A stretch of 32,000 nt of DNA from positions 1,080,001 to 1,112,000 of the forward strand of contig NC_014205.1 of NCBI RefSeq assembly GCF_000092465.1, in the 5' to 3' direction. This DNA comes from Staphylothermus hellenicus DSM 12710 (GTDB lineage Archaea > Thermoproteota > Thermoprotei_A > Sulfolobales > Desulfurococcaceae). Shown in pieces: positions 10,211 through 15,093 of the stretch (positions are counted from its first letter, which is position 1; each line of letters starts with the position of its first letter). A program made the position numbers and the translations under genes. The notes below the pieces were generated by a model. The model was not told the DNA's origin. It was given only the letters and a program-made list of their open reading frames with translations, and ran no database searches.

Positions 10211-10218
10211 TTTAATAA
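10211..10218 (+). promoter_or_regulatory. TATA-like box for the tRNA 3'-half transcript
   Basis: TTTAATAA is centred about 29 nt upstream of the first G of the leader (10244). That spacing is typical for archaeal TATA-to-start distance. Confidence 0.35.
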
Positions 10219-10243: not shown

Positions 10244-10308
10244 GGGGGGCCAGCCGATAGCCGAGGCTCTTAACCCGTAGGTCCCGGGTTCAAATCCCGG
10301 CGGGCCCG
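10244..10308 (+). tRNA. tRNA-Lys(CUU) 3' half (leader 10244-10264/5, exon 10265/6-10308)
   Basis: The exon covers tRNA positions 30/31-73. It contains the anticodon loop CTCTTAA (anticodon CTT at 10269-10271), anticodon-stem 3' strand CCCGT and variable loop AGGTC. It also contains the T arm CCGGG-TTCAAAT-CCCGG, acceptor 3' strand CGGGCCC and discriminator G. No CCA is encoded. No acceptor 5' strand or D arm lies upstream. Instead there is a GC-rich leader GGGGGGCCAGCCGATA that is complementary to 15078-15093. Confidence 0.9.
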
Positions 10309-10375
10309 CTTCTACAATTTTCTATAGTCTTCTAAACATTTTTGAATACAAGTTTATTCGGCGGTGTCTCTATAA

Positions 10376-11275
10376 ATGGTAATGAGGCCCTTATTTAGTG
10401 GAGAAGATATTGATCTCCATATTGTTTTAGGAACTCCTATTCTTTATTCCAGAAGTTATGACATGATTATTTTCTCAGATGTACATTTAGGTTTCGAGGA
10501 ATCGGTGGCTAGGGGTTTAGATTATAGTAGTCGTAGAGTTTCAACACGATATACTGGAATGTTTATTCCGAAGATCCAGTTAAGAAATACATTGAAGAAA
10601 TTAGGCTTTGTATTTAAATATTTGAAGCCCAAACGTGTAATAATAAATGGAGATCTCAAGCATGCATTCGATAGGCTTCTCCGACAGGAAAGAGAAGAAG
10701 TTAAGAAACTCCTTAATTATCTAATATCTAATGGTGTTAAGGAAATAATAGTTGTGAGAGGAAATCATGATAATTTCTTACCGATTATTTTAAGAGAGTA
10801 TGGAATAGAATTAGTGAGAGAATACGAATTATATTTTAACAACTATAAAACACTCTTCATTCATGGACATTTAGAAAAAGATATATCCAAATACGATCTA
10901 GTAGTAATTGGCCATGAACATCCAAGTCTAAGATGTTTTAATACATATAAATTCCCGGCTTTCTTAATAGTACCTACTATACTTGGAAACAGAATAGTTG
11001 TGCTACCGGCAATGAGTGCTTATCATCCGGGAACATCTATTTCTCTTGACCCCGAAAACTATTTATCACCGCTAATTAAGAAATACGGCATCTTAAATAA
11101 GGCAAGAGTTATTGTTTGGGTGGAATATGAAACAGTTGAAGATATCGAGTTTGGTATTGAGAGTACTGTTTCGGAGGATCTAGTAATTATTGATAATTAT
11201 CAATTAGATAATAGAGGAATTTCAGTTATAGAGTTTAAAGATATAGAAACTGCTCTATTAACGTGTGGATTATAA
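10376..11275 (+). CDS. Metallophosphoesterase (calcineurin-like, ICC/SbcD-like)
   Basis: Motifs appear in order: FSDVHLG, NGDLKH, VRGNHDN, IHGH, GHEHP. Confidence 0.8.
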   Translation: MVMRPLFSGEDIDLHIVLGTPILYSRSYDMIIFSDVHLGFEESVARGLDYSSRRVSTRYTGMFIPKIQLRNTLKKLGFVFKYLKPKRVIINGDLKHAFDRLLRQEREEVKKLLNYLISNGVKEIIVVRGNHDNFLPIILREYGIELVREYELYFNNYKTLFIHGHLEKDISKYDLVVIGHEHPSLRCFNTYKFPAFLIVPTILGNRIVVLPAMSAYHPGTSISLDPENYLSPLIKKYGILNKARVIVWVEYETVEDIEFGIESTVSEDLVIIDNYQLDNRGISVIEFKDIETALLTCGL

Positions 11276-11282
11276 TAGTAGC

Positions 11283-12299
11283 TTATTTTACTGATAAATC
11301 CCTTGATACTTTTACGGCATCGAATCCGTGGCGGACTATTACAGATACTTTTTTAACATTTACATTACTTTTTCCTAATACCTCTTTAATTAGTTCTACT
11401 ATGCTATTAGCCAGACTTATCATTTTTTGTCTTTTACGTGTAAGGCCTAATCGAGTCACTATAACTTCTAATAAAATTTTTTCTTTATCTCCTCTAATTA
11501 TTGCTTGGGGTATATTTACTTGGTTTTTGAATGCGTGTTTAATTATTCTCTCATTGAGCTCCAATATTGATTGATCAATAGATATTGCCTCTTTTATCTT
11601 AACAGGTTGAAAATCTTTTTCCTCAGTTATCTCTTGTTTATTTTCCCTTGTTAAACCTAGAGATGCGAGAACTTGTGGCGGTAGAAATTGTCTTGCTAAT
11701 TCACTTGGTATTGGAGCTGTTTTAGATGTTGAAGTTTCAACTGGTATGGTGGTGGCTGGAGCTATTTCTTTGGGCTCAATTATTTTACCAACTTCTTTGA
11801 ATCTTCTAGTTTTTAAAAGGGTTTTCTTAGATGTAGGTTTTTCTAATGACTCCGTGGAGACAATATTATCGATATTGATACCTAGTCTTTTCTTGATAAA
11901 GTCTAATGATACCTCTGTTATCTCGATTACCCCAGCTACGTAGATGTTTTTGTTTATTCTACTAGTTATTTCTTCTAATAGTCTTGTACCTGATAACTTC
12001 TCATCATCTACTTCTCCCGAGGCAGCTATTGCTATACCATTACATACAAGTATACTGAGCTCATCCCATGTTCCAGTTTCTTTTCGTAAACTGATCCTGC
12101 TGTATATGCATTTTCTACGACTCTTACTAATTAACTCTTTAAAAACACCCGCTATGTCTTCTCCTATTACCCTTATAACGCCTTGAAATACTCCCTCCAA
12201 AGTTATATATGCTTCAAAAGCACTGCTTCTTATCTTTTCGCTGATATTATCTATTCCTTCATATAATTCGAGCTCAACCGCTTTAGGCTCCTTAGCCAA
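11283..12299 (-). CDS. Hypothetical protein (two globular regions joined by a Pro/Thr/Ser/Lys linker)
   Basis: 338-aa ORF. The start codon is TTG at 12299 (read directly). The only internal Met is near the C-terminus. I recognise no family. Confidence 0.6.
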   Translation of the reverse strand: MAKEPKAVELELYEGIDNISEKIRSSAFEAYITLEGVFQGVIRVIGEDIAGVFKELISKSRRKCIYSRISLRKETGTWDELSILVCNGIAIAASGEVDDEKLSGTRLLEEITSRINKNIYVAGVIEITEVSLDFIKKRLGINIDNIVSTESLEKPTSKKTLLKTRRFKEVGKIIEPKEIAPATTIPVETSTSKTAPIPSELARQFLPPQVLASLGLTRENKQEITEEKDFQPVKIKEAISIDQSILELNERIIKHAFKNQVNIPQAIIRGDKEKILLEVIVTRLGLTRKRQKMISLANSIVELIKEVLGKSNVNVKKVSVIVRHGFDAVKVSRDLSVK

Positions 12300-12551
12300 T
12301 ATGTTTGCACCCTATGATGTAAAATACCCACGTCGATATTGTTCTTCAGGCAATCGACCCTTCTTCATCCCCCTATATAAGGGGTTAGGCTATGTCGGCC
12401 TCAACATCAACTATATATAATCTCAGTTAATACCCTTAATATTCTTATATTGGCACTAATTGGTAATAATATAAATAATAGCGATGTTAATGTGAGATTT
12501 TATACGGGTCTATAGATTATCATGGAATAATAGAATAAAAGTACGGGGCGT

Positions 12552-13661
12552 GTGATCATGATATGGTGGTTTTATGATCCCCTAGTTATCATCGCGATGC
12601 TCCTAGCATATATAATAGGATTTATAACGCTTAACATTATTGCTTCCTTAATTGCCCCTAGAGTTGCTAGAAAATTATCGAATAAGTTTTCATTTTATAC
12701 ATCAATGTATGTTGCGGGAGCGATAGTTTTCATAGGAGGATTTACAGCAATTTATATTCTATGGTTAATTATTGAAAACTTGGGATACAGTATATTATTC
12801 ACAGACTTAATTATTTTCGTTATAATAATGAATATTGTAATGTATATTATTTCTCCAATAATCATCAATGTATCTTATGGAGCACGCCATGATCCAGAGC
12901 TACAAATGCTTGTCGACGAAGCTGCTAGGAGGGCGGGTATGAAGCCTCCTAAAGCCATCGTTGTTAATGGTCCTCCCAATGCTTTCGCATATGGTAACTC
13001 GTTAACCGGCAAATATGTCGCAGTAACCACGGGCATGTTAGGCATTGTTGATAAAAACGAGTTGTTAGGAGTAATAGGTCATGAGCTCGGACATCATAAA
13101 CACAGAGATAACTTCATAATGTTGTTTATGGGGATTATTCCAAGCATAATATATTATCTAGGCCTACTATTTATGAGAACAGGTCTTGCAGGAGGATACG
13201 GTAGGGAGAGAGAAGAAGGGAATCCATTACTATTATTGCTTATAGGTATTGGAGCTATTCTATTAAGCTTAATAATACAAGTGTTCATTCTAGCTTTTAG
13301 TAGATTAAGAGAATACTATGCAGACGCTCATGGAGCATATGTTGCTGGAAACAAGGAGATGCAACGAGCATTAGCTAAGCTACACATGTATTATTCATAT
13401 AACAAAGAAATGCGTGAACACATAGACTCTAGTAAGCTAAGGACACTCTTCATTTACGCATTAACAGAGGCAGTCGCAAATCCATTCTACCCATATAATT
13501 ATAGAAGAAGTATAAGTTATGGAGATGTTGACAAATTAATAGAGAAAATAAAGAATTTACCAGTTGATCCAGCAAGAGAAATTCTCAGCAGCCATCCACC
13601 CATACCGAAAAGGTTGAGATTCCTTGACAACATATTGTTAAACAACGAAAGAATAAGATGA
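12552..13661 (+). CDS. htpX: Membrane zinc metalloprotease, M48/HtpX-like
   Basis: Several N-terminal TM segments are present. The zinc motif is HELGHHKHRD (HExxH), with a downstream third-ligand region REYYADAH and a C-terminal SSHPPIPKRL. The start is GTG at 12552 (alternative ATG at 12558). Confidence 0.85.
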   Translation: MIMIWWFYDPLVIIAMLLAYIIGFITLNIIASLIAPRVARKLSNKFSFYTSMYVAGAIVFIGGFTAIYILWLIIENLGYSILFTDLIIFVIIMNIVMYIISPIIINVSYGARHDPELQMLVDEAARRAGMKPPKAIVVNGPPNAFAYGNSLTGKYVAVTTGMLGIVDKNELLGVIGHELGHHKHRDNFIMLFMGIIPSIIYYLGLLFMRTGLAGGYGREREEGNPLLLLLIGIGAILLSLIIQVFILAFSRLREYYADAHGAYVAGNKEMQRALAKLHMYYSYNKEMREHIDSSKLRTLFIYALTEAVANPFYPYNYRRSISYGDVDKLIEKIKNLPVDPAREILSSHPPIPKRLRFLDNILLNNERIR

Positions 13662-14104
13662 AAACCTTGTTTGTTGAAGGAATAATTATAGTCTTAGATC
13701 TGGACCGTTTCGAGGAATACACAATTAAATACGGCCTCGACCAATATAAGCCCAATACCATAACAGGTATGTTAACAAGTCTCGTTGAAAACTTTATAAG
13801 AAAATGGAGAGCAGTTGTAGTGTATGGACTAGACTATGAAAGAGGTACAGAAGAAACGATAATCGAGATCCCATACGGATTTGAACAAATAGATGAAATC
13901 GTTAAGGATCTAAAGGCTATAAAAGACGAAATTAATAAGGCAGGTGCATTAATAACCATTGTAGTCGTTAAAGACTATGTTTTAGGAAGAAAAGCTAGAA
14001 ATAGGAAAGAAGCATATCATGGAACACCAGGCAGAAGAAGAGCTATTCGCGTGTTAAGAAAAGCTAAAAGAGCCGGTGGCAATAAATTGGTTGTGCTTAT
14101 ATAG
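13658..14104 (+). CDS. Small protein with GGDEF/cyclase-palm-like motif pattern and a basic tail (hypothetical)
   Basis: 148 aa. The ATG overlaps the protease TGA (ATGA at 13658-13661). IIIVLDLDRFEEY is followed about 50 residues later by VVVYGLDYERGTEETIIEI, then a helix, then ALITIVVV. The tail is Arg/Lys-rich (GRKARNRK...GRRRAIRVLRKAKRAG). Confidence 0.6.
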   Translation: MKTLFVEGIIIVLDLDRFEEYTIKYGLDQYKPNTITGMLTSLVENFIRKWRAVVVYGLDYERGTEETIIEIPYGFEQIDEIVKDLKAIKDEINKAGALITIVVVKDYVLGRKARNRKEAYHGTPGRRRAIRVLRKAKRAGGNKLVVLI

Positions 14105-14202
14105 ATTATAAGAATAAGTAGTTCTCTCTGAAAAATTACTTGTTAAAAAGTATAATTTCGCACCAAAAAGAAATAAGTTGATAGATATTATTAGGGAAAC
14201 CA

Positions 14203-14268
14203 ATTCAGTGTGAGACTAGGGTCTTCATCCCTACAATACGGGTCCTAGGCTGCCCACGTCATCATTCA
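14203..14268 (-). ncRNA. Candidate C/D-box sRNA (2'-O-methylation guide)
   Basis: Minus strand: C box aATGATGA (14266-14259), 12-nt guide CGTGGGCAGCCT, D'-like AGGA (14246-14243). A CCC-gtattgta-GGG mini-hairpin follows, then C' ATGAAGA (14228-14222) and a 13-nt guide CCCTAGTCTCACA. The D box CTGA is at 14208-14205. It is a GC-rich island in AT-rich spacer. A palindromic TTATATAA (14288-14295) lies about 26 nt upstream. The D'-C' spacer is longer than usual. Confidence 0.45.
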
Positions 14269-14314
14269 GGGCTGTATAATGTTTTAATTATATAATATTT
14301 TTAACTATACCCGA

Positions 14315-14914
14315 TCACCAACTTCTCTTCGGCAATAAACAGTCTAGATCTAGTAGTTTCTTAGCAATATTTCTAACCGCCATTTCTACTTCGCTTTCCT
14401 CCTTTGCACCAGTAATAACCATTTTTCCACTACTGAAAATTAATAGGACAACCCGTGGCTCCCTCATACGATGAATAAGTCCGGGAAACTGTTCAGGCTC
14501 ATACATGCTATCTTCTAATAAATAAGCTGCTCTCTCCAAATTAATATATGCATTAATATCTCCAGATGCTACAATATTTTGGATCTGTATACGGGGCTTT
14601 GAAACTATTTTAATACCATATTTTCTCAGCAACTTAATTATTTTCTTAACAGCATCTATTAGTTGCTGAGTACTTTTAGCGCCTGTTACAACCATTTTGC
14701 CGGATTTAAATATTAATGCAGTTGTTTTTGGTTTTTCCAGTCTTAATATTAAACCTGGAAACTGATCAGGTTGGTAGCTAACATTTGGGACACGGCTCTC
14801 GATAAGGTTGAGATCAAGGGATTGATCAATAATGACTGTGGCAACTATGTTTTCGATCTTCGTTGTAGGTCTTAAATCTATTTCCCTCTTCACATCGGTA
14901 ACCAAATTTATCAC
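14315..14914 (-). CDS. tbp: TATA-box binding protein
   Basis: Two tandem TBP repeats are present (IENIVATV...[28 protein letters not shown] and IQNIVASG...[28 protein letters not shown]). The start is GTG. Confidence 0.95.
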
Positions 14915-15012
14915 CCGCTTATCAATAGTTTAAAAGACTATTATGGAATTTAAATATAATCTCTGCACCTAATATTATTTAAAACTAGTTATTCGGTAAA
15001 ATTTAAAAGCTG

Positions 15013-15020
15013 ATTTATAC
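15013..15020 (+). promoter_or_regulatory. TATA-like box for the tRNA 5'-half transcript
   Basis: ATTTATAC lies 26-33 nt upstream of G1 of the tRNA (15046). Confidence 0.35.
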
Positions 15021-15045
15021 AAGAAATAGTTGGACAAGAGAAAAA

Positions 15046-15093
15046 GGGCCCGTAGCTCAGCCTGGTAGAGCGGCGGATAACGGCTGGCCCCCC
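15046..15093 (+). tRNA. tRNA-Lys(CUU) 5' half (exon 15046-15075/6, trailer to 15093)
   Basis: GGGCCCG-TA-GCTC-AGCCTGGTA-GAGC-G-GCGG gives the acceptor 5' strand (a perfect complement of 10301-10307), the D arm, position 26 and anticodon-stem positions 27-30. No anticodon loop or T arm follows. Instead A plus TAACGGCTGGCCCCCC (15078-15093) follows. That trailer is the reverse complement of 10244-10259 with one A.A mismatch. Confidence 0.9.

Follow-up and report, generated by a model that had tools for sequence, protein, structure and literature searches.

We analysed a 32-kb window of the Staphylothermus hellenicus DSM 12710 chromosome (NC_014205.1, positions 1,080,001 to 1,112,000; positions below are those of the window) and focused on two short segments that together correspond to a tRNA-Lys(CUU). 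The downstream segment is a 5' exon, which comprises the acceptor 5' strand, the D arm and anticodon-stem positions 27-30. The upstream segment is a 3' exon, which contributes the anticodon CUU, the variable loop, the T arm, the acceptor 3' strand and the discriminator G. The two are spaced 4.78 kb apart on one strand, the 3' half lying upstream, and five protein genes on both strands separate them (Table 1). Given this order and these intervening genes, the halves are not exons of one ordinary intron-containing gene. The 3' exon is directly followed by CTT, so that the CCA end is not encoded and would have to be added post-transcriptionally.

Table 1. Features of the two tRNA-Lys(CUU) halves and their surroundings in the 32-kb window.
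Feature	Position	Strand	Sequence	Remarks
A/T-rich, TATA-like box of the 3'-half gene	10211-10218	+	TTTAATAA	putative promoter element
Leader, helix strand	10244-10256	+	GGGGGGCCAGCCG	exact reverse complement of 15081-15093
Leader, base of helix h'	10257-10259	+	ATA	A.A mismatch and two A-U pairs in a pair-by-pair check
Leader, 3' strand of the central helix	10260-10263	+	GCCG	4-bp bulge-helix-bulge helix; pairs with C25 G26 G27 C28 (15071-15074)
[quoted passage not shown]
3' exon	10266-10308	+	GCTCTTAACCCGTAGGTCCCGGGTTCAAATCCCGGCGGGCCCG	43 nt; tRNA positions 31-73
Pyrimidine/T-rich tract	10309-10325	+	cttctacaattttctat	likely terminator of the 3' half, judged from sequence
Intervening genes	10376-14914	both		metallophosphoesterase (+), 338-aa protein (-), HtpX (+), 148-aa protein (+), TBP (-)
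HtpX-type protease gene	12552-13661	+		between the halves
Candidate A/T-rich box of the 5' half	15002-15009	+	TTTAAAAG	
Candidate A/T-rich box of the 5' half	15014-15020	+	TTTATAC	
5' exon	15046-15076	+	GGGCCCGTAGCTCAGCCTGGTAGAGCGGCGG	31 nt; tRNA positions 1-30 with a 17a insertion in the D loop
5' splice bulge	15075-15077	+	G29 G30 / A	cleavage predicted between 15076 and 15077 by hBHBh' geometry
Trailer	15078-15093	+	CGGCUGGCCCCCC	UA and A (mismatch), then the sequence given, which is the intermolecular-helix strand
Trailer, helix strand	15081-15093	+	CGGCTGGCCCCCC	exact reverse complement of 10244-10256

Neither locus is a complete tRNA. A first-pass annotation of the window, made from its letters, had described both segments in this way; its sequences and coordinates are accurate, and the start of the 3' exon, which it left at 10265 or 10266, is 10266. 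ARAGORN called no tRNA in the intact window, and a permissive Rfam search (E<=1) returned T-arm fragments only, weakly tmRNA- or mascRNA-like, at 10247-10307, with no tRNA. Both results bear out the earlier statements that each locus is incomplete and that standard tRNA finders miss it. As half-genes are expected to escape such programs, we did not count these blanks against a split gene. When the exons are joined (31 + 43 nt), ARAGORN calls the resulting 74-mer as tRNA-Lys(ctt). The joined molecule forms a full canonical cloverleaf with four stems, in which the acceptor stem has 7/7 base pairs, the D and T stems are perfect and the anticodon stem contains one G.U pair, in agreement with the fold drawn at first pass. 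Its G+C content is 70%, compared with 36% for the window.

The sequences flanking the two exons at their junction are complementary. Trailer and leader pair exactly over 13 bp, and this 13-mer complement is unique in the window, where base composition predicts 2e-5 occurrences. Past these 13 bp the helix extends across an A.A mismatch into an A-U and a U-A pair, adding 2 bp, and the earlier description of 16 bp with one A.A mismatch is therefore correct (U-A, A-U, A.A, then 13 bp). The GCCGAG hexamer that lies between the leader helix and the 3' exon, which the first-pass annotation did not mention, is not spacer but completes an hBHBh' motif. In this motif the outer helix h is formed by A21-G24 (15067-15070) with C32-U35 (10267-10270), and the central helix H by C25-C28 with GCCG (CGGC/GCCG). 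The bulges GG/A and AG/G flank these 4 bp, and all pairs are standard, with the register assigned by rule. Precursor lengths computed from this arrangement are 48 nt for the 5' half (5' exon plus a 17-nt trailer) and 65 nt for the 3' half (22-nt leader plus 3' exon).

[quoted passage not shown] In Table 1 of Chan, Cozen and Lowe 2011 (Genome Biol 12:R38; PMC3218864) it is listed with the 5' half at 1095046(+), the 3' half at 1090266(+), ligation at 30/31 and pre/mature sizes of ~48/31 and ~65/43. Adding 1,080,000 to window positions 15046 and 10266 gives these coordinates, and the ligation site and precursor lengths agree too. The HtpX protein encoded between the halves is 100% identical to one from S. 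hellenicus. The window therefore carries the published locus itself rather than an ortholog. The first-pass annotation had named this report and suspected that the locus was not a new discovery, and it was right on both counts. The same paper describes a canonical hBHBh' motif and perfect 13-nt trans-pairing for Staphylothermus tRNA-Lys(CUU), and states that this tRNA is otherwise missing from S. marinus. Organism, coordinates, 30/31 junction and 13-nt trans-pairing are all the same as in our analysis and nothing differs in the locus; the sole difference published for S. marinus, a G.U for a G-C pair in the helix, is seen in the S. marinus locus that we collected (L123). Reviews of 2014 and 2015 give the same species list as the 2011 paper.

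To evaluate conservation, syntenic loci were collected through HtpX orthologs and by scanning species-representative genomes for the 3' exon (at least 120 loci, designated here by L numbers); lookups of P0022 and P0018 led to non-syntenic loci with no tRNA halves. Among the loci examined, both halves occur on one contig in six genomes, namely the window, S. marinus, Staphylothermus sp. AUK105 (L040), a JGI metagenome contig (L126) and the metagenome-assembled genomes (MAGs) S144_56 (L104) and SS_W3_Bin002 (L131). Each of the six has a trans-helix of 13-22 bp, with a differing sequence. The junction regions of these genomes were aligned (alignment A1) and tested against the hBHBh' structure. 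In this alignment 98.5% of cells were paired, compared with 31-54% in controls where the partners were slid by 1-3 columns. Five pairs had changed on both sides and two on one side only, and the covariation score was reached by 0/500 shuffles. Columns 14/75 and 15/74 were paired in 6/6 and 5/6 genomes, respectively. The central GCCG helix is kept in 6/6 genomes, with a G-C to G.U change in two, and both bulges are kept. The complementarity of trailer and leader, which in the window comprises the 13 exact pairs and the 2 bp past the A.A mismatch, is thus accompanied by compensatory change in the six genomes. Wherever the 31-nt 5' exon was found (ten genomes, comprising the window and nine others), its sequence is the same, with HtpX identity to S. 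hellenicus down to 57%; it occupies the syntenic spacer between the TBP and DUF2070 genes in seven of the nine others, and trailers and flanks differ between genomes that share it.

These data bear on whether a rearrangement broke a tRNA-Lys(CUU) gene and left the two segments as dead remnants, with AAG codons being read by tRNA-Lys(UUU) through wobble. Wherever an intact tRNA-Lys(UUU) was captured in relatives, its sequence agrees with these exons at positions other than 34, S. marinus Lys(UUU) is reported to be nearly identical in its 3' part (PMC3218864), and the literature searched gave no expression data for Staphylothermus, all of which would suit this explanation. Remnants would decay, however, yet the 5' exon is unchanged across the ten genomes, changes in trailer and leader compensate each other, the 4-bp bulge-helix-bulge helix and both bulges are kept, and an A/T box is maintained at fixed spacing before each half (see below). 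Together, exon identity, covariation and conserved upstream boxes argue strongly against decayed fragments and favour two independently transcribed half-genes under selection, and we consider dead remnants very improbable. Four related assemblies carry a split CUU 3' half together with an intact Lys(UUU) gene, and an intact CUU gene was found in none of the four. Another candidate explanation is that two G/C-rich segments resemble tRNA parts by chance. Nothing beyond the failure of the standard finders speaks for it, and it is excluded by the full cloverleaf, the unique 13-bp complement, the conservation and covariation, and the prior publication.

An A/T-rich box upstream of each half is also conserved. 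Most split 3' halves are preceded by a TTTAATAATCC-type box, whose end lies 25-26 nt before the first leader-helix base in the five loci measured (window, L040, L047, L052, L126). In the eight orthologous 5' halves that were measured, the distance from the end of a TTTAAAA-type box to G1 is 29-36 nt. Pyrimidine/T-rich tracts follow both halves, with comparable tracts after orthologous 3' halves. Consistent with strong promoter matches reported for the halves (PMC3218864), the A/T boxes may serve as independent promoters, one per half.

A permuted tRNA gene would be an alternative, in which a single long transcript spans the 3' half, the following 4.8 kb and the 5' half, the bulge-helix-bulge forms in cis, a circle is ligated and the tRNA is freed by processing of the ends. 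In all six genomes the 3' half precedes the 5' half on the same strand, at distances of 3.6-7.3 kb, as such a gene would have it, and permuted tRNAs exist in Thermofilum pendens (PMC3218864). A permuted gene has its 3' part directly upstream within one short transcription unit, whereas here the permuted order comes with a gap of 4.78 kb that has genes on both strands; the pieces of the known permuted genes in Table 1 of PMC3218864 start 18-24 bp apart. Moreover, the interval contains five genes, two of them on the opposite strand, a T-rich tract follows the 3' half, the 5' half has its own conserved A/T box, and no 3' half lies within 10 kb upstream of the 5' half in L127, L128 and L130. A permuted gene is accordingly a most unlikely explanation of the locus.

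We conclude, with high confidence, that the two segments constitute a functional split (trans-spliced) tRNA-Lys(CUU) gene of S. hellenicus. Several points weigh against this conclusion. The explicit structure, consisting of the hBHBh' motif together with acceptor stem and T arm, all pairs being standard, evaluates to -65.1 kcal/mol, and an unconstrained cofold reaches -77.2 kcal/mol. The latter retains acceptor stem, T arm and the trans-helix of 13 bp but shifts the junction register, as minimum free energy folding favours a register a few bases off, with two 2-nt internal loops, over the 3-nt staggered bulges. The same shift occurs in the cis-intron relatives described below. The bulge-helix-bulge register therefore rests on the motif rule and the published ligation site, not on energy. 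In addition, an exact match to 35 nt of the exon was the search criterion for 3' halves in relatives, and identity over those 35 nt is thus built into the search. No intact tRNA-Lys(CUU) gene was found, the part of the S. hellenicus genome covered being the 32-kb window alone. Finally, verification by reverse transcription PCR and northern blotting was reported only for the Aeropyrum pernix tRNA-Asp (PMC3218864), and no RNA evidence for either Staphylothermus species was found in the literature searched.

By analogy with the work on Nanoarchaeum and Caldivirga cited in PMC3218864, the halves of the split gene would be separately transcribed, cleaved, ligated and used in translation. Two short RNAs would be made from separate promoters, one of ~48 nt plus a short 5' leader and the other of ~65 nt. 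Trailer and leader would anneal through the 13-bp G/C-rich helix, placing the exon ends in the hBHBh' motif. The broad-specificity splicing endonuclease, an alpha2 beta2 heterotetramer in crenarchaea (PMC3218864), would then cut after G30 and before G31. An RNA ligase would join G30 to G31, and the molecule would refold into the cloverleaf. After trimming of the ends and addition of CCA, the product would read AAG codons. Neither the splicing endonuclease nor the RNA ligase is encoded in the window.

The arrangement had been likened at first pass to that of Nanoarchaeum equitans and Caldivirga maquilingensis, and this comparison holds, since the flanks are complementary as in other split tRNAs. 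The tRNA-Lys(CUU) of N. equitans (Randau et al. 2005, as relayed in PMC3218864) is the same isoacceptor, with a 30/31 junction, an hBHBh' motif and a G/C-rich trans-helix, and the mature molecules of Staphylothermus and N. equitans are seven nucleotides apart (PMC3218864). In N. equitans, which has six split tRNAs in its genome, the halves lie far apart on opposite strands (PMC3218864, Table 1), whereas one split tRNA is seen here, with halves 4.8 kb apart on one strand. According to Fujishima et al. 2009, as cited in the reviews, the leaders of the split and tri-split tRNAs of C. maquilingensis resemble introns at the same position in related species. There is a likeness here too, in that cis introns at 30/31 in relatives end in GCCGAG, as does the window leader. 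The Caldivirga genes described there involve different isoacceptors and junctions, and halves are shared between tRNAs; no sharing was seen in the window.

We next consider the state of the gene across relatives. As the counts derive from the scanned loci and synteny lookups, they are lower bounds. The tRNA-Lys(CUU) genes comprise at least 23 that are intact, at least 31 with a cis intron at 30/31 and at least 15 split-like 3' halves. When 3' halves are combined with 5' halves found by synteny, the split is carried by at least about 16 distinct assemblies, not two. Some 14 of these lie beyond the two published species, and are represented by 3' halves (L025, L040, L047, L049/L131, which are the same contig, L052, L056, L067, L088, L104) and by 5' halves (L125, L126, L127, L128, L130). 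HtpX identity of split-bearing relatives to S. hellenicus extends down to 57%, and wherever the context is visible the 5' half is in the TBP/DUF2070 spacer. Chan, Cozen and Lowe judged the split to be 'relatively recent' and anticipated further examples (PMC3218864); a later paper listing the additional split assemblies was not found in the literature searched. As we read PMC3218864, the ~16 split assemblies, the cis-intron relatives and an identifiable ancestral site are new relative to it, and these comparative results are a modest extension of a known finding.

Two further loci, L045 (6079) and L053 (2701), contain Lys(CUU) 3' portions that encode CCA; their leader is a different one (ending CCGCCGAG), and so is their gene context. 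No 5' half was found within either locus, and they may be independent splits or genes with very long introns.

The cis introns lie at exactly 30/31 and are 13-35 nt long, the short ones measuring 13-23 nt (at least 31 loci, such as L011 3626, L016, L018, L033 and L070). Their first base is A and nearly all end in GCCGAG, which is the same central-helix strand and bulge as in the window leader. These cis-spliced genes, from MAGs of Desulfurococcales and Sulfolobales, thus share exons, splice bulges and the GCCG strand with the window. They differ in having a contiguous, noncanonical intron whose distal helix is a hairpin, whereas in the window this helix forms between two RNAs. In relatives the whole gene, either intact or with a 35-nt intron, sits immediately upstream of the metallophosphoesterase ortholog, where the window has its 3' half. 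Intact genes occupy this site in L060 (1533-7998), L019, L023, L055, L057, L064, L068, L071, L077, L084, L095, L114 and L115. L060 has the gene order of the window, an intact tRNA and nothing tRNA-like between TBP and DUF2070. Given the whole genes at the metallophosphoesterase site and the empty spacer in L060, the 3' half has remained at the ancestral site and it is the 5' exon that was displaced.

In two MAGs (L036 1883 and L096 2319), the Lys gene upstream of the metallophosphoesterase ortholog has the anticodon UUU rather than CUU, which could reflect an anticodon switch or a gene replacement at the ancestral site.

The 35-nt cis intron at 30/31, found in L020 (1786), L024 (4669) and L090 (5184), has the sequence ACACCACCAACCAG-ATC-TGGTTGGTGGAGGCTGAA. 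It folds into a 10-bp hairpin with a 4-nt loop (z = -4.96), and it reads as a trailer, a 3-nt loop and a leader, its 3' arm resembling the leader of L025. In a neighbour-joining tree of three flanking proteins, the split lineages and the 35-nt-intron lineage formed one group (86% bootstrap) apart from the intact-gene lineages, and L025, a split locus, came out as the sister of the 35-nt-intron lineage (100% bootstrap), which places that lineage within the split clade. Backbone support inside the split clade was weak (18-41%), so the tree does not fix which of the two states, split or 35-nt intron, gave rise to the other. The 35-nt-intron lineage could represent a retained pre-split state or a re-fused split gene. 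We tentatively raise a model, somewhat doubtful at present, in which the split is the ancestral state of this clade (about 16 assemblies or more), a gene with an intron at 30/31 having had its 5' exon moved from the metallophosphoesterase site to the TBP/DUF2070 spacer, and in which the 35-nt-intron lineage is a re-fused split. If the lineage was indeed re-fused, tRNA gene splitting would be reversible.

Other features of the window and its relatives were observed in passing. Two independent short-read assemblies of S. hellenicus (L121, L122) break inside the T arm of the 3' half, position 1 of each corresponding to window ~10285; the breaks fit a repeat shared with tRNA-Lys(UUU) that collapses the assembly graph. 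In S. hellenicus a GPN-loop GTPase gene (PF03029; 17482-18290, minus strand) is broken: compared with the 257-aa ortholog of S. marinus it shows three 1-nt indels, its P-loop is degenerate (WPSWFGKT vs GPAGSGKT), and the orthologous position lacks a start codon. The identical sequence in the independent read assembly L121 indicates a real pseudogene, not a sequencing error. Imperfect GTT/GTA-rich tandem repeats at 253-805 and 2364-2563 lie inside two large minus-strand open reading frames, one for a protein of 566 aa bearing a Glucodextran_C SLH-like module, the other for a solute-binding protein of 1013 aa. These repeats are probably low-complexity linkers of surface proteins.

Split tRNA genes are rare, with 29 trans-spliced tRNA genes in seven archaeal genomes counted in a 2014 review, and they figure centrally in the debate about tRNA origins, in which tRNAs either started out as two half-molecules or were split at a later stage. 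The S. hellenicus locus adds nothing new in itself, and its main use is as a positive control that was found from the letters alone and missed by ARAGORN and Rfam. On the evidence of its sequence and that of its relatives, the element is real and rare, and almost certainly functional. Across the clade, its exons, splice motif and trans-helix are under selection, which bears on the debate over origins. Given that relatives have a whole gene, intact or with a cis intron, at this chromosomal site, these data point to a late, derived split.

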